From a virus (taxonomy: Duplodnaviria; Caudoviricetes), in IMG/VR virus record IMGVR_UViG_3300026549_000043, positions 32,001 through 96,000 of that record: 64,000 bases of DNA. One strand, written 5' to 3'. This document shows, in pieces, positions 2,306 to 63,098 of the stretch. The position numbers and the translations under genes are program-made. Every line of letters begins with the position of its first letter. Within the stretch, counting starts at the first letter, position 1. The notes under the pieces are model-generated. The model saw nothing but the letters and a program-made list of their open reading frames with translations, was not told where the DNA came from and did not search any database.

Positions 2306-5047
2306 ATGGAAAAAATTATTCAACAAAGTCTTTTTGGTGCAAATTTTGACATTATTTTAAATAATGATAAAACTGATAAGATAATAAAAAAATTAAAGAA
2401 ACCAAAAGATCTATCTGAAGTTAGTACAGATAAATTCTTGAAGTCTAAAAATATTTCTATTGGGGAGAAGATAAAAAGAGTTACTGAAGACGTCAACCGT
2501 ATCTTGGGTAATTATAAAAATGATACTATAGTAATTAAGTCTGAAGATGAATTAAAAAATTATATCGATAAGGCTATTTCTAATGGAGTTATTTCAGTCG
2601 ATACAGAAACAAATAATTCTTTAGACCCTTTAACATGTAAGATTATGGGTTTATGTATATATACTCCAGGTGAAAAGAACGCTTATGTACCAGTTAATCA
2701 TATTAATTTAAATACTAAAGAGAAATTACCAAATCAGGTAACTGAAGAAGAAATCAATCACCAGTTAACTAGATTATTAGAAAATAAAACAAAATGTATA
2801 TTTCATAATGGTAAATTTGATTACATGGTAATTTATTATACTTGTGGGGTTAAACTACCAATTGATTGGGATACGATGATAGGCTCACAGATCTTAAATG
2901 AAAATGAACCAGCCGGATTGAAATATCAATATAAGAATAAAATTAACCCGGATCAAGATAAATATTCAATCGAACACCTATTCCAGGGTATGGAATATGC
3001 AATTTTTGATCCAGAATTATTTGCATTATATGCAGCCACTGATGCCTATATGACTTATAAATTATATGAATATCAAAAGAAAGAATTTGAAAAGAATGGC
3101 AATGAAAGACTATATAATCTATTTCTTAATATTGAGATGCCTGTAGTAACGGTTACTGCAGAAATGGAATCTAGAGGAATCGCCGTAGATAAAGAATTTG
3201 CTAAAAGACTTAGTACAAAATTCCATAAAAAACTAGATAATTTAAATGAGGTTATTAGTAAAGAAATGGAAAAATATCAAGATACTATTAATGAATGGAG
3301 ATTGTCAGTCGAAGCCAATAGGCATGAAGTTAAAAATGGTAAAACTCAAAAATCTTTAAGTGAAAAATTATCAGACCCGGTAGAACTTACATCGGCCACT
3401 CAATTAGGTATTCTATTATATGATGTTTTAAGAGTATTAAAAGTTGGAAGCGATGGCAAGAAAACTACCGATGAAGCTACATTATTATCTATAAAAGATA
3501 CTTTGCCATTAGCTTCTCTAATCTTAAAAAAGAGGGAATACGAAAAATATTTAGGAACTTATATTGATGTGTTGCCTACATATTGTAACCCTAGAGATGG
3601 CCGAGTACATGCTCACTTTAATCAATTAGGTAGAGAAGATAGAAACGTAGTAACAGGTAGAATGTCAAGCTCTGATCCATCATTACAGGTTATCCCTGCT
3701 AGAGGTGATATTGTAACGGTTAGAATGATGTTTGTAGCTACAACTGAGTATCCCGAAATTAAACCAATTAATGACCATTATGAAGTACCAATAGAAAATG
3801 AAGTCCTATTAAAAAGCAATGAATATAAATGGTCTTCATACCTAGAACCAGGAGATATTTTAGAAAATGGTAATAAGGTGTCTAGAATTAATGTTAAAGA
3901 AAAATTAGTAGAAATTTATTATACTGGTAATAGCGAGGTACTTAAAACTCGTAGACGTTATAAACTGTGTGGTAATGACTACTCAGCTCAGGAAGTTAGA
4001 ATGTTTGCTCAGAACACACAAGATCCTTCAATGATTAATGTTTTTAAAGAAGGTAGAGACTTATATTCTGAGGTAGCTTCAATGGTTTACCATCTTCCTT
4101 ATTATGAATGTACTGAATTTAATGATAAGGGTGAATTTAATCTTGAAGGTAAACAAAGAAGAACGAAGTGTAAAAGTTTAATTCTTGGTCTTCAATATGG
4201 ACGTGGTATTAAATCAATCGCTGAACAAATTAAAGCTCATGATGGACCAGTTAATAAAGAAGATATTGCTGAAGCAAAGAAATTATCTGATGACTTCTTT
4301 ACTCACTACCCAAAGGCCAAGGAATGGATGGATAATAATAAGAAGAAGGCTCGTGAGGTTGGGTATGTAGAGGATTTATGGGGCAGACGTAGAAGATTAC
4401 CTGATGCTTCATTACCAAAATATGAATTTTCTCTATTAAATGAAAAAGAGTTATTTAATCCATTATTAAATACTCCAGTCAGAAAATTAGAAGTTGATAA
4501 AAAATTAATTAATAGATATACCGAATTGTTGGATAAAACTAAAAGTTTATCTGAAAGAGAATCTGTCATTAAATCAGCTAAAAAGGATAATCTTTCAATT
4601 AAAAGCAATTCAGGTTATATAGCTCAGGCTGAAAGGCAGGCCATCAATGCTCCAATTCAGGGTGGATCTGCCACAATGACAAAATTGGCTATGAGGAATA
4701 TGTATTATGACCAAGAATTAAAAGATTTAGATTTTCATTTATTAATTCCAGTTCATGATGAAATTATTGCTGAAGCTCCATTATGGAATATTGATAAAGC
4801 AGTTGATAGGATGGCTTACATTATGATTCACGCAGGTGAGCCTGAATGCGAAGTACAGATGAAATGTGATGGAGATTCATTCTATCGTTGGTATGAGGAT
4901 GTCTTTAAGGCCCATGTAAAGGAAGAGTTTGAAGAACATATAAAAAATGGCTTCAGCAAGGAAGAGGCAATTAAAATGGTTCAGGAAGTAAATTCTGAGT
5001 GTACCATCGAAGAAATAGAAGGGTATATCTCAGAATTAAACCTTTAG
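2306..5047 (+). CDS. polA: Family A DNA polymerase (3'-5' exonuclease + polymerase) with ~70-aa insert
   Basis: DTET (ExoI), HNGKFD, YAATD, TGRMSS, DYSAQE (motif A), K..ILGLQYG (motif B), VHDE (motif C); N-terminal QQSLF. Confidence 0.95.
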   Translation: MEKIIQQSLFGANFDIILNNDKTDKIIKKLKKPKDLSEVSTDKFLKSKNISIGEKIKRVTEDVNRILGNYKNDTIVIKSEDELKNYIDKAISNGVISVDTETNNSLDPLTCKIMGLCIYTPGEKNAYVPVNHINLNTKEKLPNQVTEEEINHQLTRLLENKTKCIFHNGKFDYMVIYYTCGVKLPIDWDTMIGSQILNENEPAGLKYQYKNKINPDQDKYSIEHLFQGMEYAIFDPELFALYAATDAYMTYKLYEYQKKEFEKNGNERLYNLFLNIEMPVVTVTAEMESRGIAVDKEFAKRLSTKFHKKLDNLNEVISKEMEKYQDTINEWRLSVEANRHEVKNGKTQKSLSEKLSDPVELTSATQLGILLYDVLRVLKVGSDGKKTTDEATLLSIKDTLPLASLILKKREYEKYLGTYIDVLPTYCNPRDGRVHAHFNQLGREDRNVVTGRMSSSDPSLQVIPARGDIVTVRMMFVATTEYPEIKPINDHYEVPIENEVLLKSNEYKWSSYLEPGDILENGNKVSRINVKEKLVEIYYTGNSEVLKTRRRYKLCGNDYSAQEVRMFAQNTQDPSMINVFKEGRDLYSEVASMVYHLPYYECTEFNDKGEFNLEGKQRRTKCKSLILGLQYGRGIKSIAEQIKAHDGPVNKEDIAEAKKLSDDFFTHYPKAKEWMDNNKKKAREVGYVEDLWGRRRRLPDASLPKYEFSLLNEKELFNPLLNTPVRKLEVDKKLINRYTELLDKTKSLSERESVIKSAKKDNLSIKSNSGYIAQAERQAINAPIQGGSATMTKLAMRNMYYDQELKDLDFHLLIPVHDEIIAEAPLWNIDKAVDRMAYIMIHAGEPECEVQMKCDGDSFYRWYEDVFKAHVKEEFEEHIKNGFSKEEAIKMVQEVNSECTIEEIEGYISELNL

Positions 5048-10058: not shown

Positions 10059-10222
10059 TGGAAAAGAATGATAAAGAAAAAGTGATACCATCTAAGCCTG
10101 ATAAAAATGGATGGTTCAGGTGTCAGGTTTGTAATCAGATGGTAGGGAATGATAATTATTGTAAGAATTGTGGTCAGAGGTTAAAAGATGGATCTTGGAA
10201 AAAAATTCGAAGCTTTTTTTAA
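10058..10222 (+). CDS. Small zinc-ribbon protein (54 aa; not in ORF track)
   Basis: CQVC...CKNCGQ; TAATG coupling to upstream gene. Confidence 0.65.
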   Translation: MEKNDKEKVIPSKPDKNGWFRCQVCNQMVGNDNYCKNCGQRLKDGSWKKIRSFF

Positions 10223-10655
10223 AAAAAATTGGATAGATACTGTACCAGAATCATTTATTTATAGATTAAATGACCAGATGTCTGGTTATATGGGTTCAAG
10301 CAATATTAGTGATTTTATTTGTTATAAAAAGCCTGAGTTATTTTTAATTGAGTGTAAGGCCCACGCCGGGAATACATTCCCCTTCTCAGCTTTTAGGCAA
10401 TATGAGGATCTTTCTCACTGATCTGACTTAGAAGGAGTTCATCCTGGAGTAATATTATGGCTATATGACCATGATGTTATCCTTTGAATACCAATAAAAA
10501 CTTTTATGAAATTAAAATCAGAAGATAAAAAATCTTTTAATATAAAATATTTAGGTAACCCAGATTATGAAAATGTTATAATTCCAACAAAGAAATTAAG
10601 GACTTTCTTGGATGGTGATTATTCAGTTTTAATAGATTATTATAAGGAGAAGTAA
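10188..10655 (+). CDS. recU: RecU-like Holliday junction resolvase (2 in-frame TGA)
   Basis: GKKFE, SDF, IECK motifs; reading TGA at 10419 and 10485 as Trp extends the frame to TAA 10655, abutting the next ATG at 10656. Confidence 0.8.
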
Positions 10656-15365: not shown

Positions 15366-15463
15366 ACCTCGGTCTTACTGTCCGGTGACAGGAACGGTCT
15401 TCAAAATCGTAGGACACGGGTCCAACCGTGTTTATGAGGGCTCGACACCTTCCCGAGGTGCCA
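15366..15463 (+). tRNA. tRNA with UCA anticodon, Sec-like architecture (opal decoder)
   Basis: Acceptor ACCTCGG/CCGAGGT + G + CCA; D arm CTGTC-CGGT-GACAG; anticodon arm ACGGT-CTTCAAA-ATCGT; long variable arm ACACGG/CCGTGT; T arm GAGGG-CTCGACA-CCTTC; 98 nt. Confidence 0.85.
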
Positions 15464-15466
15464 TTT

Positions 15467-15541
15467 AGATCTTTGGTGTAATGGTAGCACAGCAGTCTCC
15501 AAAACTGTTAGGTGTGGGTTCAAGTCCTACAGGGTCTGCCA
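15467..15541 (+). tRNA. tRNA-Trp(CCA)
   Basis: Cloverleaf; anticodon loop CTCCAAA; GGTTCAAGTCC; ends GCCA. Confidence 0.93.
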
Positions 15542-22597: not shown

Positions 22598-22603
22598 TAT
22601 ATT

Positions 22604-23428
22604 ATGAACCCATTATTTAAAAAGCCTAAAGACGTCCGATTTGTAGATATGGCTATATGAATTGATAACAATATTTATAAAGAAGATTGTGATATGGATA
22701 AGGCATTTACTTACATGTATTTATTGGCCTATATGTTAGCTAGTAAAGCTAAGTATTTTAATACTATTGCTGACTATGATGGCTTTGCCTATTTCTTGGC
22801 CTACTCAACTTATAGTAGGTATAAGGATCAAAGTAAGAAGCCGGTAAAATCGGTATTAAATTATATGAAATCAATTATGTATTTCAGAAAGTTAACTTAT
22901 GACCGGGAAACATTCTGTGAAGTAATAAACCCAGAATATAATACTAATTGGGATGAAAATAAATATAAAAATAGTAGAATTAATTCCTTAGAATCTCAGA
23001 ATAGAACAAATTTAATTCAATTAAGTATTCAAGACATTTTTAGTGATATACCAAAAATAATTTTTAAAAATATACCAAAGATATATTTTAGTGATAATTT
23101 AATTAAAAATAATATTTATAAATCTACCCTATTATCACTATTAAGCAGCTATACATTACCACAAGAATTTCAAATAAAATTACAGAAAAAGTTAGAAGAA
23201 AAATCAACTTTTGATGAAGCTTCTTTCTATAAAAAACATTTAACCAAGGATATAATTTTATGACATTTACCAGATTCAATGGAATCAGTAGTCAGGCTGG
23301 TTATAAATAAAACGAACCAAGACTTAATTGAATTAATTCGAGGATTATCTGATGAAATAAAGGTTACTGAATATGATTTAGATCTAATGTTTAAATCGGC
23401 TTATGAGAATTGAAATGAAGAGTCCTAA
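22604..23428 (+). CDS. Helical protein, possibly a phage sigma-like factor (3 in-frame TGA)
   Basis: Continuous frame through TGA at 22658, 23261 and 23411; weak similarity to the gp55-type pattern. Confidence 0.45.
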
Positions 23429-27099: not shown

Positions 27100-28851
27100 A
27101 TGGAAATAACACTTTGTTTGAATAAAGATTTCGAAAGAACGCTTGAAATGCTTAGAGATAAGTATGGTGAAGATTTTGAATACTTCAGTGGTATACATCC
27201 AACTCAGTTAGATTATTCAGAATTTTTATCAAATTTCGTAAAGAATGATACATTGGCCGATACAACCGTAGACCCTAACGCTAATGCTTCTCATAAAGAT
27301 ATTAGATCATATATGACTGAAAAAGGTAAAGCATCAGATAAGTTATTTGGATTAAATAAAATCTTTTTAGAGATTAAAAAGAGGTGGGGTTTAAAGACTG
27401 CACGTCAATGGCTTGAACAAGAGTATTCAAAAGGATTCTATTTGAATGATTCTACCTCTGCTAGCTATATCCCTTACTGCTGGGCTAATGATTTAACTAG
27501 ATTAGCTACAGAAGGACTATTCTTCTTATCTAATTATAATCATCAGCCACCTAAGCATTTAACTACATATTTTGATGATGTAATTGAATTTACTTCATTC
27601 CTCAGTAATAGACAATCAGGAGCTGTAGGTCTCCCTAATGTTATAATTTGGGCTTATTATTTTTGGAAGCATGACTGTGAAAATGGATATTTCTTAAAGG
27701 ATCCAGATACATATTTAAGACAGAATTTCCAAAAATTTATTTATAGATTAAATCAACCATTTATGAGAATAGATCAGTGTGCTTTTACAAACGTATCTAT
27801 TTTCGATAGACCTTACTTAGAAGAATTATTCGGCGGAGTAGAATTCCCAGACGGTAGCTTTGCCATTGACCAGATTGAAGAATTAGTTAAAGCACAAAAG
27901 GTCTTTATGGAAGTTGTAGCAGATATCCGTAAAGAAAATATGTTTACCTTTCCTATTATAACATTTTCCATTTTGTACAAGGATGGAGAATTTAAAGACC
28001 AAGAATTCGCAAGATGGGCATGTGCTCATAATATGCAATGGAGTGATAGCAATTTCTTCTGCTCAGATAATGTGGGGGTATTAAGTAATTGCTGTAGATT
28101 ATTAAGTGATACATCAAAATTGGACGCATTTATTAATTCTATTGGTGGTACAGCTCTTTCAGTAGGATCATGTAGAGTAAGCACAATTAACTTGGTTAGA
28201 ATAGCTTATGAAGCATTTGAGTATAATAAACCAAATGAAGTTCCATTAAAGAGGGCTAGATCTAAGTATCTTAAAATTCTTCGTGACCGAGTAGAATTAG
28301 ATTGTAAGGCCTTATTATCAATGAGACATATCCTTAAGAGAAATATTGAAAAGGGATTGTTACCTAATTACCAAGATGGTGCATTAGAATTAGATAAGCA
28401 GTTCTGTACTATTGGTGGTATTGGAATGTATGAAGTAATGGATATGTTTGGGTTGATCAATACTGATGAATTTGGTAATAAATCTTATTCTGATGAAGCT
28501 GTTGAATTTGCTACAGAAATTTTGGATTTAATGAATGAGGTTAAGGATACATTCTTTGAAAGAAATAATATCGAAAAGAAAGACCAGTTCTCATTTAACA
28601 TTGAATTTATCCCAGCAGAAAATGCAGCAGGAATTTTATGTCAAGCTGATAATCTCTTATTTAGAGACGGAAGTTGTGATTACACAACATATGATTACAG
28701 GTTTAGTATTAATGGTAAGAATTATTTAATAAAATCAAGAGATACTGTAAAAGTAAATATATCAGGTAAGATAAAAGAAGTTAGTGCAAAAGAAGCATTT
28801 GACAATGACTACGATTTAGTTGAAGAATATTTAGATAAGTTTTGTTGCTAA
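27100..28851 (+). CDS. nrdD: Class III ribonucleotide reductase, N-terminal fragment (NrdD-a) plus 62-aa foreign tail
   Basis: PYC, QSGAVG, FTFP, NCCRL, TINL, IPAEN; lacks the glycyl-radical domain. Confidence 0.92.
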   Translation: MEITLCLNKDFERTLEMLRDKYGEDFEYFSGIHPTQLDYSEFLSNFVKNDTLADTTVDPNANASHKDIRSYMTEKGKASDKLFGLNKIFLEIKKRWGLKTARQWLEQEYSKGFYLNDSTSASYIPYCWANDLTRLATEGLFFLSNYNHQPPKHLTTYFDDVIEFTSFLSNRQSGAVGLPNVIIWAYYFWKHDCENGYFLKDPDTYLRQNFQKFIYRLNQPFMRIDQCAFTNVSIFDRPYLEELFGGVEFPDGSFAIDQIEELVKAQKVFMEVVADIRKENMFTFPIITFSILYKDGEFKDQEFARWACAHNMQWSDSNFFCSDNVGVLSNCCRLLSDTSKLDAFINSIGGTALSVGSCRVSTINLVRIAYEAFEYNKPNEVPLKRARSKYLKILRDRVELDCKALLSMRHILKRNIEKGLLPNYQDGALELDKQFCTIGGIGMYEVMDMFGLINTDEFGNKSYSDEAVEFATEILDLMNEVKDTFFERNNIEKKDQFSFNIEFIPAENAAGILCQADNLLFRDGSCDYTTYDYRFSINGKNYLIKSRDTVKVNISGKIKEVSAKEAFDNDYDLVEEYLDKFCC

Positions 28852-28920
28852 ATTTAATATATAAAATGTCAATACCTAGTCTGGTGCTGGCCGGCCCGCT
28901 GGGTATCAGACTAGGAGGAG
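28846..28920 (+). promoter_or_regulatory. TGCTAAATT promoter plus RBS-sequestering hairpin of the nuclease gene
   Basis: CCTAGTCTGGTGC (28875) pairs with GTATCAGACTAGG (to 28915), overlapping AGGAGG. Confidence 0.65.
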
Positions 28921-28927
28921 ACTTTTT

Positions 28928-29776
28928 ATGGGTAAAATTTATACTTATATTCATAAAGGTCAACAGAATAGTAAATGTAAAACAGTTGACCTTTGTTTAT
29001 TTCTTAATGATGGATGAGAACTTGGTTGACCAAATATTCATGATCACATGGTTAAAATGAGTAAGAAAGCCGCTGAAAAATTAAGTGATTTGAAAGAAAA
29101 TAATTATGAAGATTATGTAAAATTCCAAGAAAATAAAAGTAAAAATGTGTCTAAAGGTTTACTTAAATTTTGATCAGATGTTGCAGATAAAGAGTATATA
29201 AAAAATCGTGAGGAAAAGAAGCAAGAATCGAGAGATAATTGAACACCTGAAGAGCGTGAATTATATCATAATAGGATGTCTGAATCAGCCAAAAGGGATA
29301 GGGCAAATACATCCCAAGAAGAGTATCATAGAAGAAGTGTTTTAGCTACTGAAACGAAGAAGAGAAACGGTACTATGAACACATCATCCTATGAAAATAT
29401 TACATATGATTTATTAAGAACAATTTATGGTGATGATGATATCATCTATGATGATTATGTAGATGATAGATACTCAACAAAATGCGATTTCTATATCAAA
29501 TCATTAGATATATTTATTGAATTAAATATTCATCCATCTCATAATAATCACCCGTTTGATGAGAATAATGCGGATGATTTAAGTTTAGTAGAAGAATTAA
29601 AATCTAAAGGTGATAAATGATCGAACATGATTTTAGATGTTTGATGTAGACGTGATGTCGAGAAATTCAATCAAGCTAAAGATAATAAATTGAATTATAT
29701 CTTAGTGTATCCAAATAACTTTGATAATTTTATACTCGCAATAAAGGAGAATAGAATATGAGATTTAGTGAAATAA
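28928..29776 (+). mobile_element. Free-standing homing endonuclease, Vsr/PD-(D/E)xK-like (7 in-frame TGA)
   Basis: Continuous frame with TGA=Trp; S.YE...CDFYI....FIELN..H motif; NDGWELG motif; lies between the nrdD halves. Confidence 0.8.
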
Positions 29777-30216
29777 ATAGTTTATGTGTCAGAGAAGATA
29801 AGCATGAGTATTATATAGAGTCTAATCAATGGATCCCATTAATGGAAAAGTGTACTATCCAAGAAAAGTGTAGATTAGGTAATTTATTTGATAAAAAGTG
29901 TGGCGGTGGATGCATCGCTCATATTAATATCGAAGGAAGATTCCCTAATGAAGAAATGGCTTGGGATATGTTAAATTATGTAGCTAGTCAGGGTGTAATT
30001 TATTTTGCCTTTAATACCAAGATTAATGTCTGTGAAGATAAGCATGCTTCTATTGGTACTACTGTATGTCCACATTGTGGTAAACCAATTGTTGATAAAT
30101 ATACCAGAGTAGTGGGGTTCTATACACCACTATCATCATATCAGGCGATAAGGAAAAGAGAAGCTACTGCCAGGAAATGGTATAATGTTTTAGAAAAAGA
30201 ATCAATGTTCAGCTAA
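29758..30216 (+). CDS. nrdD: NrdD C-terminal fragment (NrdD-b; glycyl radical + Zn ribbon)
   Basis: SNQWIPL, GGG.IAH, C...H...CPHC, TRVVGFY; own AAGGAG RBS. Confidence 0.92.
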   Translation: MRFSEINSLCVREDKHEYYIESNQWIPLMEKCTIQEKCRLGNLFDKKCGGGCIAHINIEGRFPNEEMAWDMLNYVASQGVIYFAFNTKINVCEDKHASIGTTVCPHCGKPIVDKYTRVVGFYTPLSSYQAIRKREATARKWYNVLEKESMFS

Positions 30217-30253: not shown

Positions 30254-30280
30254 TAAAGGCAGGTATATCTGCCTTTTTTA
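30254..30280 (+). terminator. Intrinsic terminator
   Basis: AAAGGCAG-GTATAT-CTGCCTTT followed by a T run. Confidence 0.75.
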
Positions 30281-39069: not shown

Positions 39070-39630
39070 ATGGATTATAAAGAACGTATACTTAAACAGG
39101 TAATAGACTGGGAAAAGATTGATAAACCTAATATACCAGATGTTATTGAAGTATTTGATGTTAATGAAACTGATTTTATTAATTATAAAGAATCTACCTT
39201 TATGATTTATTCAGGAATATCTTGTACTTTTAAATGTGATAAAGAAAATGGGACTCAGATCTGTCAGAACTGGGGTATAAGAAATAATAAAAGAATAAAA
39301 ACTTCAATTGAAGGGTTGATTAATAAATATCTTAATCAAAATATTTCTAAATCAATTTCTTTTCAAGGCCTAGAACCTTTAGATAACTTATTTCAGCTTT
39401 TATGTTTTATTTATCGTTTCAGAGTTAAATGTGATGACCCAATTATAATTTGGACTGGATATACTGAAGAAGAATGTGATAGCTTAATACAATTAATAAA
39501 ATCAATGAATTTAAAAAATATTATCATAAAGTTTGGTAGGTATATTCCAGGACAGAAAAGTCATTATGATGAAATTTTAGGTATAGACCTAGCATCGGAT
39601 AATCAATATTCAAAAATGATTAATGAATAA
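39070..39630 (+). CDS. nrdG: Anaerobic RNR activase (radical SAM)
   Basis: CTFKC...CQN, GLEP, WTGY, K.GRY, ASDNQ. Confidence 0.85.
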   Translation: MDYKERILKQVIDWEKIDKPNIPDVIEVFDVNETDFINYKESTFMIYSGISCTFKCDKENGTQICQNWGIRNNKRIKTSIEGLINKYLNQNISKSISFQGLEPLDNLFQLLCFIYRFRVKCDDPIIIWTGYTEEECDSLIQLIKSMNLKNIIIKFGRYIPGQKSHYDEILGIDLASDNQYSKMINE

Positions 39631-40884: not shown

Positions 40885-41250
40885 GCTATGAAGCATACAT
40901 CAACATTCTTATTATGACTCTTATTAGGTTTAATCATAGGACCATTAGGAGTAGCATACTTATTAGTTAAAACATTAGATGAGGGTTAATTATGAAGAAG
41001 ATTACAGAAGATGAAGCCTATGGAATGTATTTAAGTTGGGGATACGATGAAGTTCTCCCATTTAAAGATGAATTTACTGGTATAGATTTTATTAATTATT
41101 TAATATTTTTAGGTTATAGTATTGAATAAAATAAATGGATCTTAAGTCCATATTAGGTATATATCTTAAAAAATAGGAATACTCCTATTTTTTATTTAGT
41201 TTAATTTATAGCGAAATTATTATACAATATATATGTCTCAGGAGGTATGT

Positions 41251-43143
41251 ATGGCAAAAAAGGATAAAACTTTATATACTGAAAATTCTATTAAAACTCT
41301 TAAGCCACGAGAACATGTAAGACTTAGGGCAGGTTTATATCTTGGTTCTAATGAATATTCTACTCAATTGGTCAAAGAAATCTTTTATAATTCATTGGAT
41401 GAGCATTTAATTAATCACGGGAATTTAATTACTGTTATTATTAATACAGCAACCAACGAATATAGAGTTGATGATAATGGCCAGGGATTTCCAATTAATG
41501 TATTTAAAGAAAATAAAACTATTTTACAACGAGCTTTTGATACTATTAATACCTCGGGAAAATATGACGATGATGGAGTTTATTCTGGTACCTCCTTGGG
41601 GTTAAACGGAATCGGTTCAAAATTAACTAATTTCTTATCTAATTATTTAGAAGTAGTTTCCTGGAATAATGGTGAATTTGAACATATTAGGTTTGAAGAT
41701 GGAATATTCAAGTGGAGGCAACAAGGTAAATCAAGCCACCCAAATGGCACTACCGTATGTTGGCAACCTGACCCACAATTCTTCCAAGACCCTAAATCTA
41801 ATATTAACGAGTTGAAAAAGTTATTTGAAGATATAGCTGGTCTTTGTCCATCTTTAACTATTAAATTAATTATAGATGGACAAATAGAACAATTCCATTA
41901 CTCAAATGGCTTAGATGATTTGTTGACTTCTAAGGTCAAGAATAAAGAAATAACTCAAAATAGGTTTAGACTACATAAAGAAGATAAAAATAAATTATTT
42001 GATATGGTTTTAACTTATACTTCAGACTATTCTGAAAATATTACTGCCTATGTTAATTATGGCCTGACTGAATCAGGAGTTCATATTAGTAGTTTAAAAT
42101 CAGCCTTAACTAAAATGATTAATAAATATGCTACTGATATTGGAATTATTAAAAAAGAAACAGATGAATTTTCTTCATCAGAATTATCTGAAGGCTTAAA
42201 TATTATATTCAATGTAAAATGTACTGGAGTAAGTTATGATAGCCAAACTAAATCTAGAGTAGTAGACTTGGATAAATCACTAATGATTTCATCCATTAAA
42301 AAAGAATTTCCAGCCTGGTTATTAAACAATGAAAGAGATGCAAAGTTAATTATTGATAGAGCCTCAAAGGCTAGAAAAGCAAAAGAAGCTGCTCAGAATG
42401 CTAAAGAAAGAATTAGAAATGCTACAAATAAAGGGAAGAAGTTTATTTCACTTCCTACTAAATTAGTAGATGCTTATTCTAAAGATAGAACTGAATGTGA
42501 ACTATTTATCACTGAGGGAGATAGTGCGGCTAATGGGTTAATAGCTAAACGTAGCGGTAAAACACAGGCTATTTTCCCTATTAGAGGTAAAATTCTTTCT
42601 TGCAGAAAAGCTTCAATGGATAAGATTTATGCTAATCAAGAGATTTCAAATATTGTAAAGGCGTTAGGCCTAGATATTGAAAAAGAGACTGGTAAGTTAG
42701 TTTATAATGTCAAGAAACTTAGGTATGGAAAAATAATCTTAGCAGCAGATGGTGATGAAGATGGTGCTAATATTAAATCGTTATTAATTAATGCCTTGTG
42801 GTGGTTATGCCCTGAATTAATTGAGAATGGCCATGTGTGGGTTGCTGTTCCCCCACTTTATAGAATAACTTTAAAAGATAATAGTTATATATTTATAAGG
42901 GACCAAAGTTCTTTAGATGACTATAAAAAGAAACATAAGGGAAATTATAAAATAAACAGGAATAAAGGTTTAGGTGAACAATCTCCAGATGAATTGGCCT
43001 CATGCATATTATCACCTAATTCAAGAAATATATTACAACTTACTTCACCTGGGTATAAACCAGTAGATGATTTCCTTGAATGTTTATTTGGAAATGAAGT
43101 AAAACCTAGAAGAGAATATTTATTAGAGCATTATAATGATTAA
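41251..43143 (+). CDS. gyrB: Type IIA topoisomerase B subunit (GyrB/ParE-like)
   Basis: GHKL motifs (NSLDE, DNGQG, GLNGIG), EGDSA, PIRGK, ADGDEDG, KGLGE. Confidence 0.92.
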   Translation: MAKKDKTLYTENSIKTLKPREHVRLRAGLYLGSNEYSTQLVKEIFYNSLDEHLINHGNLITVIINTATNEYRVDDNGQGFPINVFKENKTILQRAFDTINTSGKYDDDGVYSGTSLGLNGIGSKLTNFLSNYLEVVSWNNGEFEHIRFEDGIFKWRQQGKSSHPNGTTVCWQPDPQFFQDPKSNINELKKLFEDIAGLCPSLTIKLIIDGQIEQFHYSNGLDDLLTSKVKNKEITQNRFRLHKEDKNKLFDMVLTYTSDYSENITAYVNYGLTESGVHISSLKSALTKMINKYATDIGIIKKETDEFSSSELSEGLNIIFNVKCTGVSYDSQTKSRVVDLDKSLMISSIKKEFPAWLLNNERDAKLIIDRASKARKAKEAAQNAKERIRNATNKGKKFISLPTKLVDAYSKDRTECELFITEGDSAANGLIAKRSGKTQAIFPIRGKILSCRKASMDKIYANQEISNIVKALGLDIEKETGKLVYNVKKLRYGKIILAADGDEDGANIKSLLINALWWLCPELIENGHVWVAVPPLYRITLKDNSYIFIRDQSSLDDYKKKHKGNYKINRNKGLGEQSPDELASCILSPNSRNILQLTSPGYKPVDDFLECLFGNEVKPRREYLLEHYND

Positions 43144-43147
43144 CTAT

Positions 43148-43259
43148 TGCTAAATTAAATATAATAGTGTATATTATATTAAGCGTCTTCTAGTTGACTT
43201 TATTGGCACTGACAGGCCTGTCAATTTAGTTGGTGCTGACAAGGTTTACTAGGAGATGT
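43148..43259 (+). promoter_or_regulatory. TGCTAAATT promoter plus long RBS-sequestering hairpin
   Basis: GCGTCTTCTAGT (43183) pairs with ACTAGGAGATGT (43248-43259), which contains AGGAG; inner G:U-rich stem. Confidence 0.65.
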
Positions 43260-43266
43260 TTTATTT

Positions 43267-43962
43267 ATGACCAAAAATGAATTATTAAAACTTGATTGTT
43301 TTTATGACAACGAATATTTACAACAATATGTAGATTTAGTTAATTCTAATATCAACACTGAGTATCAAAGTGGAATTACTGAATGCCATCATATTATCCC
43401 TAAGGTTTATTTTAAATATAAAAAGTTAGAAGTTGATAATAGTAATAGTAATTTAGTTAATCTAATTTATTGTGACCATGTATTAGCTCATTGTTTGTTA
43501 GCCTTGTCCTATAAAGATAAATATCTAATTTCAGCTAGTATAGATGGAGTATATGGAGTTTTAAATAGTTTTAATATTTATAAAACTTTAGAAGAATTCG
43601 TGAAAGATTTTCCTGAAGTTAAAGATATTTTAAAATGTAATCATTTTGTATCAGACGAGCAAAAGAAAAAATTATCTAAAATAAGCTCTAATTCAAATTG
43701 ATATAATAATGGGATAAAAGAAACTTTTACTATATATAAACCTATTGGTGACGAATGAATACCTGGTCGATTACCCTTTTCTGAGAAACAAAAAGAAAAA
43801 TTCAGAAATAACAGTTTAAAATGTCATTGGTATAATGATGGTAATAAAAGTGTTTTCGCTAAAGAATGCCCACCTGGTTTTATTCCTGGAAGAATAGTTA
43901 CTGATAAATTATTGGCTTCTAATAAAAGAAATGCTCAAAAAAGAAGAAAAAAGATAAAATAA
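43267..43962 (+). mobile_element. Free-standing HNH homing endonuclease (2 in-frame TGA)
   Basis: ECHHIIPK...NLVNL...HVLAH; C-terminal repeats (TGA)YNNG...(TGA)IPGR and WYNDG...FIPGR. Confidence 0.85.
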
Positions 43963-44024
43963 ACTACTGAGTAGTTTATTTTTTGTAAGTTTAATTATAT
44001 AATATAAGTAGGAGATAATCTTAT

Positions 44025-46037
44025 ATGGTTGACATTTTAAAAGAATTACACGAAGATTTTATAACCTATGCTAAAGAAGTAAATGAAAACAGGGCTTTCC
44101 CTGATGCTAGAGATGGACTGAAGCCATCAGCTAGAGCTTGTTTATGGGAAATGTTTATTCGTGGCTATACCTCAAATAAACCACACGTTAAATCAGCTAA
44201 AGTAGATGGTGGTGTTATAGCTAATTGGCATCCACACGGAAGCGAATATTCTACTTTTGTAAGGATGTCTCAGCCTTGGATAAATAATATTCCAGAAGTA
44301 GACTGGCACGGAGCAAATGGGTCTCAACTGGGTGGCCCAGAGCCAGCAGCAGCAAGATACACAGAATGTAGATTATCTACGGCGAGTGAGGATGGGTTCT
44401 TTACTAATATTAAGAAAAATACTATTGACATGATACCTAACTTTTCAGAGGATGATGAGTGGCCAATAGTATTCCCAGCCATTTTTCCAAGATTATTCGT
44501 AAACGGTTCACAAGGAATTGGCTATACAATTGCTCAGGAGTGGGAACTTGGAAATTTAAAAGAATTCACTGAAAAAGTTAAACAGTATTTAAAGAAAAAG
44601 AAAATAACTTGTGATGACATCTATCCAGATTACCCTACTGCTGGAATCATTATAAATAAGAAAGACATCCATACAATTTATGAGACTGGTAAAGGTTCTG
44701 TCGTTCTACGAGGTAAATCTGAAATAGATGGAAATCTTATTAAGATTACTTCATTACCTTATCAAGTATATGTAGAACCTTTCATAGCGAGTATTAAGGA
44801 CTTAGTTAATGAAGGCAAGCTTACAGGCATTGAAGACATCTATAATAAGTCTGACGACAATGGAATGTTAATTGAAATTGAATGTAGTGAAGATCCTAAC
44901 TTAGTTCTTAATTCACTGTTTAAGTTAACCGATTTACAATATACGTTTAGTGCTAACCAGATGGCATTAGTTAATGGGAAACCAGAACTTCTCACTTTGG
45001 AAGATTACATTAGAATCTATATAGAACATAATATAGAATGTATTAAAAGAGAGTATCAATTTGATTTAGATAAAGCCAACAGTAGAAAAGAAATAGTTGA
45101 TGGTCTGGTTAAAGCTTTAGGAATGATTGACTCAATTATTAGTACTATAAAGAAGTCTAAGAGTTCTGAAGAGGCTAAGAAATCATTAGTCTCTCAAGGT
45201 TTTACTTCTAATCAAGCCCAGGCAATTGTTGATATGCGGCTTGGAAAGTTAGCTAACTTAGAACAGGACGAACTTAATAAAGAACAAAAAGAACTTATTA
45301 AGAAAGTATCCGATCTTACAAAGGTCATCAATTCAAGTAAAACCCAGGAAAAAGAATTCTTAAAACGATTAGAAGACTTTACTTCTAGGTATGGCTGGGA
45401 AAGAAGAACAGAAGTTACTGATATTGATTTTAAGACTGAAACCAAGAAGGTAAAAACTACCATTAAAAACACTGAACAAGTAATGGTTTTATTGAACAGC
45501 GATTCTGAATTAAAGAAAGTTTCTTTAACTGATTATCGAGAATTAAAAAATTCTAATATTGTAAAATCTATAAAGGTTGGCCTCAAAGATAAAATTATTT
45601 TAATTTCTAATCTAGGGAAGATGTATAAAATAGAAGTTAATAAAATTCCAAAAGGTAGCATGAAATCTTCAGGAAAATTAGTTAGTGAATTAATTACGTT
45701 AGAGCCAAATGAATTCATTATTGATATCTTTTCTGGGAAAGAAGAAGACCCATATTTATTCTTTATAACAGATAAGGCTAATGTAAAGAAAGTTAATTCA
45801 GAAGAGATTTTTGGTATTAGTAAAAAATCTGGTACTCCAGTTTTCAAATTAAAGGAAGAATCATTATTAGAAGTATTCTTAGTTAACGATAATTCAGTTA
45901 TTAATTTAATAACTTCAAAGCCAAAAGAGTATCAAATTAAAGTTAGTGATTTTAATACTAAATCTAGAAAGGCTTCAGGAGTTAGAAGTATAAAATTAAA
46001 ATCCTATACTCTCATGGAAACTTCTTTGCTAAATTAA
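44025..46037 (+). CDS. gyrA: Type IIA topoisomerase A subunit (GyrA/ParC-like)
   Basis: RAFPDARDGLKP, HPHG, AAARYTE, PDYPT. Confidence 0.92.
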   Translation: MVDILKELHEDFITYAKEVNENRAFPDARDGLKPSARACLWEMFIRGYTSNKPHVKSAKVDGGVIANWHPHGSEYSTFVRMSQPWINNIPEVDWHGANGSQLGGPEPAAARYTECRLSTASEDGFFTNIKKNTIDMIPNFSEDDEWPIVFPAIFPRLFVNGSQGIGYTIAQEWELGNLKEFTEKVKQYLKKKKITCDDIYPDYPTAGIIINKKDIHTIYETGKGSVVLRGKSEIDGNLIKITSLPYQVYVEPFIASIKDLVNEGKLTGIEDIYNKSDDNGMLIEIECSEDPNLVLNSLFKLTDLQYTFSANQMALVNGKPELLTLEDYIRIYIEHNIECIKREYQFDLDKANSRKEIVDGLVKALGMIDSIISTIKKSKSSEEAKKSLVSQGFTSNQAQAIVDMRLGKLANLEQDELNKEQKELIKKVSDLTKVINSSKTQEKEFLKRLEDFTSRYGWERRTEVTDIDFKTETKKVKTTIKNTEQVMVLLNSDSELKKVSLTDYRELKNSNIVKSIKVGLKDKIILISNLGKMYKIEVNKIPKGSMKSSGKLVSELITLEPNEFIIDIFSGKEEDPYLFFITDKANVKKVNSEEIFGISKKSGTPVFKLKEESLLEVFLVNDNSVINLITSKPKEYQIKVSDFNTKSRKASGVRSIKLKSYTLMETSLLN

Positions 46038-47758: not shown

Positions 47759-47800
47759 TTTTATTGTTGCTAAATTAATTATAAAATTAAGGAGGCAAAT

Positions 47801-48661
47801 ATGGCTAATAATAATAAATCTTTAACCACCCGTAAATTAGAATATGATAAAATTGTTGAATTTAGAAAATTACATAGTATCGACTATCTAAATAATATAG
47901 CTAAGTTAATGGGTTATACAACAATATCAGAGGTATTTGATGATGGTTGGCCTATAACAGAACTAAAAAAATATAGTGATGAAGCCAGTAAATTAACTTG
48001 AGGGGCTGATATTCCAAATAGATATTGAAAATTTATGTGTAGAGAAGTTTGTAATGAATATTTAACTGAAAAATATGGGTCACCTAAAGATTACTTCAAT
48101 ACAGAAGTTTTTATTAAACGGAGAGTAACAAATATAGGTAACACTATGGAAACTAGGTATGGGTATAGAAATCCTGGCCAATCACCTGAACACCGTGAAC
48201 TTATGAAAAAGGGAAGTAATTGTAAAAATCCCTTTTCATCTGACTCTTTTAAATATAATTCATATATTCGTGGTAAAACGGTATTGCCAGAAGATAAAAT
48301 AGCATATGATGAATATAGAAAAAAGGTTGATAAGCTCACAGATATAAATAAACAAAATTTACCTTTTACAGGTATATGCTATTATACAGAATTACCTATT
48401 TTTAAATATGATGGTAATAAAACAATTAATAGAAATGATTGGAATATGGCTACAATAGATCATAAAATTTCTGTTATAGCTGGTTTTTTAAGAGGTATTT
48501 CTCCTGAAATTATTTCTAGTGTAGATAATTTATGTTGATGCTCAAAGTATTTTAATAGTTTCAAGGGTTCCAAATGTGAAGATGAAATTAGGCTGTCAGG
48601 TCTGATCGAACGATTTAAGGAGGTTATTAAAAAATACTATGCAAGTAGTGAAGGTGACTAA
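47801..48661 (+). mobile_element. Free-standing HNH endonuclease between the split-intein halves (3 in-frame TGA)
   Basis: CYYT...TIDHKIS...NLC(TGA)CS..FNS.KG; ORFs 47801 and 48035 share a frame. Confidence 0.85.
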
Positions 48662-62200: not shown

Positions 62201-62329
62201 TATAGGCGTTTGTTTAATGATAAATTCGACCCTACCATAAGAGGGCATGAGGTTGAGTTGTTTGTAGAGTCGAATGAGGATGATAATGATAATAATATTC
62301 CTGATGAGGTAGAAAATAACGAAGAATAG
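59210..62329 (+). CDS. Large acidic late polyprotein ending in the N-half of a Pol-beta nucleotidyltransferase (1 in-frame TGA)
   Basis: Reading TGA 61964 as Trp adds GSNANYNYTDKSDIDLH...VELFVE; many (I/L)xE motifs; TGCTAAATT at 59177. Confidence 0.75.
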
Positions 62330-62345
62330 CAATAAGGAGAAGGAT

Positions 62346-63098
62346 ATGAAGGTTAATAAAATTACCAAAAATATTTCTGAATCAACATCTAATTCAAACG
62401 GAATTTATTCTTTAAATACTGGGTGGGTAAAGAAACCAGTAAAGGATGATATTCCAGAAGTAGATTTAGAACCTGATTTAACTGAGTGAAGAGACAGGGC
62501 CAAGAGCTGTAATTCTTTAGAAGATATAAATAGTTTTATAGATGATATTTATATCTTAAGACAGAATTCCATTATGAATGATGGAGAATATGGAAAAGGG
62601 AACTTGATTTTTAAAGAAATTAGAAATGAAGGCATATTACAAGAATTGAAAGATAAAAAGGTTAATTTAGAAAATAACGAAATGAGTATAAAAGAAGGAT
62701 TAAAAGATTTTTCTAATGATGTAATTGAAAAACTACTTACTAAATATTCAGATTGTTCAAAGGATGAATTAGATGATGTCTGGGATGAGATCGTAAGAGA
62801 TTATAACGATACTGATTTAGCTGATGAAGTATGTGAATTATTAGATATTAGACTTGATGATTTATATAGTGAATCATTAAAACCTATAAAAGAAGAACCA
62901 TTAGATTATAATGAAAGTGATATTTTTAAACAAAAAAATGAAGCCTGTATCAAAGAATATAGGCAGTGAGCTGGATTATCTGATGATGAATTAATCACTG
63001 AGGATAAAATAAATGAATGAGCTTTAAACCGTGTAAGCTGTAATAATAATTATGATTATAATGATTTAAAAGAAGTATTATGCGGTAATAATAAATAA
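62346..63098 (+). CDS. Probable C-half of the nucleotidyltransferase (3 in-frame TGA)
   Basis: AAGGAG RBS; SNGIYSL..GWVKKP...LRQNSI..DGEYGKGNLIFKEIRN. Confidence 0.6.

Follow-up and report, generated by a model that had tools for sequence, protein, structure and literature searches.

Introduction

Homing endonucleases usually lie inside introns or inteins, so that the gene they invade still works. Intein-less fractured genes show that hiding in this way is not obligatory, and how their pieces are held together has been little studied. Here we describe a gene of this kind in a gut-type phage (Duplodnaviria; Caudoviricetes). The gene is nrdD, encoding a class III ribonucleotide reductase (RNR), and it lies in a window of 64,000 nucleotides (nt; 30% G+C) that covers bases 32001-96000 of a 139.9 kb IMG/VR virus record (IMGVR_UViG_3300026549_000043). 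A gene for a predicted Vsr-like homing endonuclease stands between its two halves, NrdD-a and NrdD-b, which carry an added tail and an added extension at their broken ends. Coordinates below are window positions, and the features of the split locus all lie on the + strand.

The nearest precedent is an SbcD-like locus (Dassa et al. 2009, PMC2677866). There, a gene for a Vsr-like homing endonuclease separates two colinear open reading frames (ORFs), an intein is absent, and the broken ends bear 25 and 9 extra amino acids (aa) that are absent from intact homologues. The fractured ORFs, the type of nuclease, the lack of an intein and the extra end residues are common to both loci. Ours differs in its host gene, nrdD, and in its 62-aa tail, which has a predicted fold, is conserved in at least nine diverged copies and forms part of a mobile cassette. 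The same study describes hairpins upstream of endonuclease genes, as well as the split-intein genes gp41-1, NrdJ-1 and IMPDH-1. These share with our locus the gene order, the nuclease family and break peptides that are part of the mobile element, but theirs are true trans-splicing Hint halves, whereas here the splicing features are absent and the pieces are half the size.

Two other precedents come from RNR genes. In phage Aeh1, the free-standing mobE gene splits the RNR catalytic subunit gene nrdA; the halves reassemble into active enzyme, and a hairpin masks the nuclease's ribosome-binding site (RBS) (PMC2988022). A first-pass annotation of our window, made from the sequence alone, had named Aeh1 as the precedent for a fractured RNR with non-covalent reassembly, and the comparison is apt: both loci have an RNR catalytic subunit split by a free-standing homing endonuclease and a hairpin that covers the RBS. 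However, the Aeh1 enzyme is of class Ia and its nuclease is of the HNH type. A conserved, cassette-borne tail module is not described for Aeh1 in the part of the PMC2988022 text that we consulted. The nrdD gene of T4 also harbors a mobile nuclease element, a group I intron with I-TevII (PMC2988022), but in T4 RNA splicing restores one polypeptide, and there is no intron here. Split nrdD is common in phages (6/16 phage genomes with split RNR genes; PMC3653736). What is new in the present case is that the tail is large, conserved and apparently folded, that it is part of the mobile unit, and that phages with the standard code, with TGA=Trp and with TAG=Gln all have the arrangement.

A mobile cassette in nrdD

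The two halves fall on successive parts of the Pfam NRDD profile. NrdD-a (27100-28851, 583 aa) covers profile positions 16-438 and NrdD-b (29758-30216, 152 aa) covers positions 427-562. The N-terminal 521 residues of NrdD-a form the body of the enzyme (27100..28662; NRDD, 2e-55) and include the cysteine loop, SNCCRL. Beyond its first residues, NrdD-b (29839..30216; NRDD, 3.6e-25) holds barrel strands, the Zn site with its cysteines and the glycyl-radical motif RVVGFY, as aligned to Thermotoga NrdD (4COI). The profile matches, cysteine loop, Zn cysteines and glycyl-radical motif together identify the enzyme as class III NrdD.

Thousands of relatives came out of a search through 5.8 billion proteins, and we looked at the best 120. 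Most of these are undivided proteins 640-676 aa long whose identity to the first 89% of NrdD-a reaches up to 93%. The unsplit chains run continuously over the site where the window gene breaks off after ADNLLF, reading ADNLL[YF]-EQ(N/D)K-YFIYSNQWIPL. One of them (P0002), 93% identical to the NrdD-a body, aligns with 4COI over its motifs (E 2e-146) and places the break in a loop, F514/G515 of the Thermotoga enzyme, between a helix and a barrel strand. The first-pass annotation had put the split at this site, with the catalytic cysteines parted from the glycyl-radical domain and a nuclease gene in between, and had credited NrdD-a with 62 added residues; the comparison bears out the site and the gain, as those residues (RDGS...KFCC, 28663-28848) are absent from unsplit relatives. 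Its gain of about 16 aa for NrdD-b comes down to 12-13 aa, MRFSEINSLCVR(E).

Both halves are under strong purifying selection. Between split loci, the ratio of nonsynonymous to synonymous substitution (dN/dS, by the Nei-Gojobori method) is 0.06-0.16 for the NrdD-a body and 0.09-0.20 for NrdD-b. That the split gene is dead and on its way out is very improbable given such ratios (0.06-0.20 overall), halves that are intact in every split locus examined, catalytic motifs that are still present, and an NrdG-like activase gene that has been kept at 39220-39504. With two ORFs colinear with the intact homologue, a free-standing homing endonuclease gene between them and purifying selection on both, the locus is a gene in pieces, and specifically an intein-less fractured gene with an unusually large conserved tail.

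The order NrdD-a with tail, nuclease, NrdD-b with extension recurs in seven more metagenome loci (L003/L004, L005, L006, L007, L089, L090 and L091), which span three genetic codes: standard, TGA=Trp and TAG=Gln. One split locus, L003, has a near-isogenic unsplit counterpart, L088. Their proteins (P0007 and P0068) are 99% identical up to ADNLLF, and the metagenomic contigs are 95% identical at the DNA level up to the LLF codon, after which L003 has 1135 extra nt. This natural plus/minus pair places the 5' boundary of the cassette directly after the LLF codon. At the other end, homology resumes inside an altered host stretch that follows the extension in NrdD-b, DKHEYYIESNQW, where 10/24 nt differ, several of them synonymously, compared with ~5% elsewhere; beyond it, the two contigs are nearly identical again. 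Tail, hairpin, nuclease gene and extension are one mobile cassette of ~1.1 kb.

The substituted host tract just 3' of the cassette (DKHEYYIESNQWIP, 29797..29838 in the window) is delimited both by the L003-L088 comparison and by that of split with unsplit alleles. Between seven split and seventy-eight unsplit alleles, the fixed differences are the replacement of Tyr by L, A or E and the addition of two residues. Judging from these alignments, the nuclease target probably includes the tract, which is altered where alleles carry the cassette. The L003/L088 pair also offers clean natural plus and minus alleles for mapping the target of a Vsr-like endonuclease.

Split alleles are scattered on the NrdD tree. 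In a tree of NrdD-a bodies, the six split rows need five state changes, all forced by well-supported branches. The closest relative of the window NrdD is an unsplit protein (93%), while the closest relative of its tail is that of L003 (87%). Such scatter, together with the mismatch between the nearest relatives of tail and body, is the pattern predicted by homing. Tail and extension move along with the nuclease and are clearly part of the mobile element, persisting through wide divergence and all three codes. Distant relatives of the nuclease in three further loci (L093-L095) are intergenic and split nothing, so the tails belong to the nrdD cassette and not to the nuclease family at large.

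The intervening nuclease

Read with translation table 11, the spacer contains short ORFs only. With TGA read as Trp it holds one frame (28928..29776), a free-standing gene that overlaps the start of nrdD-b by 19 nt. An AlphaFold2 (AF2) model of its product, built with 120 homologues, reached a predicted local distance difference test score (pLDDT) of 89.6. Residues 148-276 of the model match Vsr (1cw0_A, Z 8.8 over 111 residues, root-mean-square deviation (rmsd) 4.3; 1vsr, Z 8.4) and the model also matches the catalytic domain of I-Bth0305I (3r3p_A, Z 7.5 over 89/97 residues, rmsd 3.1), although an unrelated mitoribosome chain (9g6k_Li, Z 8.7) ties with the Vsr matches and a Z around 8, as the comparison tool remarks, can reflect merely a common arrangement. 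Further structural matches are to other PD-(D/E)XK nucleases.

Residues D187, E198 and H205 are invariant in 121 nuclease sequences, and D243 and K246 are nearly so. The D-11-E-7-H spacing equals that of Vsr D51/F62/H69 as given in PMC2677866, and Vsr position 62 corresponds to an invariant Glu in Vsr-like homing enzymes (Dassa et al., PMC2677866). Distant relatives have the same C-terminal domain joined to different N-terminal DNA-binding modules (DUF7487, DUF723, NUMOD3 and HTH), and an N-terminal DNA-binding module with a C-terminal nuclease domain is the build of the EDxHD family (PMC3239194). I-Bth0305I and the EDxHD enzymes (PMC3239194, PDB 3r3p) have an N-terminal DNA-binding region and a C-terminal Vsr-fold nuclease in common with the protein described here. 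In contrast to it, I-Bth0305I is encoded in a recA group I intron; sequence similarity between the two is undetectable, and our protein has the motif E-x-N-x-H-x-x-H around its conserved Glu. On its predicted fold we accept the intervening gene, a nuclease gene in the first-pass annotation too, as a Vsr-like homing endonuclease whose cleavage activity we infer.

In 50,697 phage records from GenBank, the nuclease domain had relatives only in Prevotella Lak megaphages, at five to eight places in each (e.g. MK250029.1, 480980-481348).

A G+C-rich RNA hairpin (28860..28930, core 28875-28915) is predicted over the Shine-Dalgarno (SD) sequence and start codon of the nuclease gene, both of which are included in its outer stem. 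Its folding energy is -31.4 kcal/mol (z -3.86; 0/200 shuffles as stable), and double changes leave seven of its pairs intact in the window, L003 and L006. The nrdD-b gene has what reads as its own SD, AAAGGAG (29743..29749), 8 nt before its ATG. Behind nrdD-b lies a terminator-like hairpin (30255..30276); none was found between the two nrdD halves.

The tail and the extension

The cassette-borne tail of NrdD-a occupies 28663..28851 (62 codons and TAA) and, as the junction alignment shows, has no counterpart in unsplit NrdD. No stop interrupts its frame in any of the five loci compared, the other two frames having five to ten stops each, and the chance of a 62-codon open frame at this composition is ~0.02. 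Variable sites at the three codon positions number 35/30/48. Nine aligned tails, 20-87% identical, have Y12, Y21 and D51 in common; eight of the nine are 61-62 residues long, and the shared pattern holds down to 20% identity. Between the window and L003, dN/dS for the tail is 0.05 at a proportion of synonymous differences (pS) of 0.66, and in other pairs it is 0.3-1.0, several being near 1, compared with 0.06-0.20 for the enzyme and 0.26-0.49 for the nuclease; the estimates are rough on 62 A+T-rich codons. The tail is translated and moderately conserved, under a constraint that is real but loose.

The N-terminal extension of NrdD-b (MRFSEINSLCVRE, 29758..29796, 12-13 aa), likewise absent from unsplit NrdD, is less constrained. 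Six loci have M[RK]F[SN]x[ILV] in common and little else is kept, with variable sites of 11/8/8 out of 13 at the three codon positions. In L005, the tail and extension are both kept while the nuclease is reduced to an 84-aa open frame (a 76-aa called gene) without the catalytic core.

These patterns bear on whether the added peptides do anything at all. They could be tolerated baggage: the cassette would need only to close the upstream frame and open the downstream one anew, the large barrel interface would drive reassembly, and the peptides need be merely harmless and soluble. Tail dN/dS of 0.8-1.0 in several pairs, no lower than in the nuclease, would fit such a history, as would extension codons that vary at all three positions, and the halves of Aeh1 NrdA reportedly reassemble into a working protein (PMC2988022). 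Baggage would not, however, be expected to hold a length of 61-62 codons in eight of nine tails, with three invariant residues and the same strand and helix pattern down to 20% identity, nor to show a ratio of 0.05 between the window and L003, nor to be retained in L005 despite a decayed nuclease. We regard this explanation as somewhat unlikely, yet as the chief alternative to a docking role for the peptides.

No relative of the tail was found outside split NrdD in profile, IMG/VR, GenBank-phage or ESM Atlas searches. A tail profile searched against 1.84 billion representatives found only NrdD fragments (P0124, P0127 and P0129) and repeat-rich surface proteins; the latter have unrelated Pfam content and we took them as noise. 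A pattern scan of IMG/VR confirmed nothing, tblastn with the last 61 residues of the NrdD-a body plus the tail gave no match in GenBank phages, the ESM Atlas search was uninformative (best score 0.81), and a word-based search returned close copies only. The suggestion in the first-pass annotation that a similar module sits unsplit in PolA (2306-5047) also fell away: PolA has a score below zero with the tail profile, and by tblastn the whole genome holds no match but the tail itself. PolA does have a beta-rich insert of ~75 residues (residues about 478-560) before its DYSxxE motif, unrelated to the NrdD tail by hidden Markov model comparison, and Pfam DNA_pol_A matches PolA in three stretches.

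RNA and protein splicing

An intact NrdD could in principle be restored by a group I intron or by an active trans-splicing intein. The T4 intron noted above (PMC2988022) is an example in the same gene, and some related NrdDs contain inteins. Against this, an Rfam search at E<=1 found no intron in the window or in L005, with its short spacer of 336 nt. Non-coding sequence between the halves amounts to just 76 nt, compared with a group I core of about 200 nt or more, and the flanks show codon-pattern constraint, the tail being coding by its codon-position pattern and NrdD-b having an SD and ATG of its own. Of five loci, two have both nrdD halves in one frame and three have them in frames that differ, and stops fill the spacer frame. 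Because of these differing frames, no read-through protein is possible. The residues needed by an intein are also absent, and we consider either kind of splicing extremely improbable.

A related idea is that the peptides are what remains of a split intein that has lost splicing and kept its affinity, acting as a clasp. This had been the proposal of the first-pass annotation, which saw Hint-like tails there. It was right that a group I intron has no room here and that the tails and extensions lack TxxH and a terminal HN, but the Hint-like character itself found no support. A conserved +1 Cys, Ser or Thr is likewise absent. The succession of host half, peptide, hairpin, Vsr-like nuclease, peptide and host half is indeed that of split-intein fractured genes (PMC2677866), and the tail is rich in beta strands in the AF2 model. 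Yet no Pfam Hint family matches at E<=10, and hhalign against an intein-bearing NrdD (P0011) gives a probability of 0.3%. The first tail residue, where a Cys, Ser or Thr nucleophile would stand, is R in seven copies, E in L089 and G in L090. Tail and extension total about 74 aa, and their joint model is of low confidence. A length of about 74 residues is roughly half a Hint domain. With every splicing residue absent and no similarity to Hint in these searches, we rejected an intein remnant as the source of the peptides and consider a dead-intein clasp improbable.

Two close NrdD relatives of ~1000 aa (P0011 and P0035) do carry a true intein (Pfam Intein_splicing or LAGLIDADG_3). Because the best BLASTP stretch covers only 57% of the query, this intein is apparently placed well upstream of the split site, and this too speaks against descent of the peptides from an intein.

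Proposed reassembly of the enzyme

The explanation we consider probable is that a mobile cassette fractured nrdD and that the halves reassemble non-covalently. A cassette of ~1.1 kb has entered nrdD after the ADNLL(F) codon, bringing a 62-codon tail with its stop, a hairpin covering the RBS, the Vsr-like nuclease gene, and a new SD and ATG with a 12-13-codon extension. The nuclease would cut cassette-free nrdD near the stretch coding for YFIYSNQW, and repair would copy the cassette in; the substituted tract would then protect the carrier allele. All three genes would be co-transcribed, with the nuclease held back by the hairpin and by Trp codons that are TGA only and would need a phage tRNA(UCA). 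NrdD-a and NrdD-b would be translated separately and, on the model of Aeh1 NrdA, come together again non-covalently as an active glycyl-radical enzyme.

Since a single surface loop (F514/G515 of Thermotoga NrdD) is where both tail and extension depart from the barrel, they would be neighbors in the assembled enzyme. It is plausible, if tentative, that they form a small joint domain that steadies reassembly. A step further, and slightly more doubtful, is that they are a dedicated pairing module carried by the cassette, one that lets it break a conserved site of an essential gene without killing the gene. If so, such a module would count as a third way, a non-covalent one, of meeting what invasion costs, beside introns that splice themselves out and beside inteins, and the paired tails would provide a small natural heterodimerizing tag.

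Several points weigh against this account. The halves may associate and the tails may touch, but the single-chain AF2 model of a read-through protein is weak: the tail appears as four strands and a helix at pLDDT 48-74, the extension stays below 50, and the mean pLDDT is 49. The alignment behind that model had three rows over the tail (two distinct sequences) and two over the extension, because MAFFT misplaced diverged tails and extensions when these were mixed with unsplit NrdD, and the model is too weak to speak on docking. Substitutions build up in the tail far faster than in the enzyme, and there is hardly any constraint on the extension, so much of their sequence may be dispensable. The nuclease has no sequence match in Pfam, PHROGs or the PDB, searched with the single sequence and with profiles of 5 and 121 sequences, and we infer both its cleavage and its target site.

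Genetic code and neighboring genes

All seven Trp codons of the window nuclease are TGA, whereas those of NrdD-a (seven) and NrdD-b (three) are all TGG. Five of these TGA codons align with TGG-Trp in the L007 orthologue, and NrdD-b of L003 has TGA at the invariant Trp of SNQW; the reading of TGA as Trp is real in this clade on these grounds. Codon use in the nuclease orthologues of the window, L003, L006, L007, L089, L090 and L091 tracks the recoded stop of the respective phage. The nucleases of the four loci that need TGA=Trp have 6-7 TGA and 0-1 TGG, those of the standard-code loci L007 and L089 have seven TGG, and that of L090, a TAG=Gln phage, has nine in-frame TAG and seven TGG. The nuclease is an example of a selfish gene whose codons follow each host phage's recoded stop, and codon use of this kind would tie its expression to a suppressor tRNA.

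At 15366-15459, adjoining a tRNA-Trp(CCA) gene (15467-15541), is a tRNA-like gene whose anticodon is UCA and whose extra arm is long. It matches the Rfam tRNA-Sec model at 39.3 bits, under the gathering score, and ARAGORN misses it. It is likely a TGA suppressor.

The window also contains a replication module of PolA, an SbcC-like protein, a sliding clamp, GyrB, GyrA and NrdD. The large genes of this group (PolA, SbcC-like, GyrA, GyrB and NrdD) have zero TGA codons. Between gyrB (41212-43143) and gyrA (44019-46037) there is an HNH homing endonuclease gene (43183-43962; PHROG 655, 3e-12) with two in-frame TGA codons, at Trp-like positions of WYNNG/GR repeats that are W or F in other repeat copies, and three further TGA codons upstream of its likely start. 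A third nuclease-like ORF (47774-48661; PHROG endonuclease VII, 3e-05) has three in-frame TGA codons. Three other ORFs (10185-10655, 22598-23428 and 62313-63098) are open only with TGA=Trp, and one of these has a motif that, by eye, resembles those of PD-(D/E)XK resolvases.

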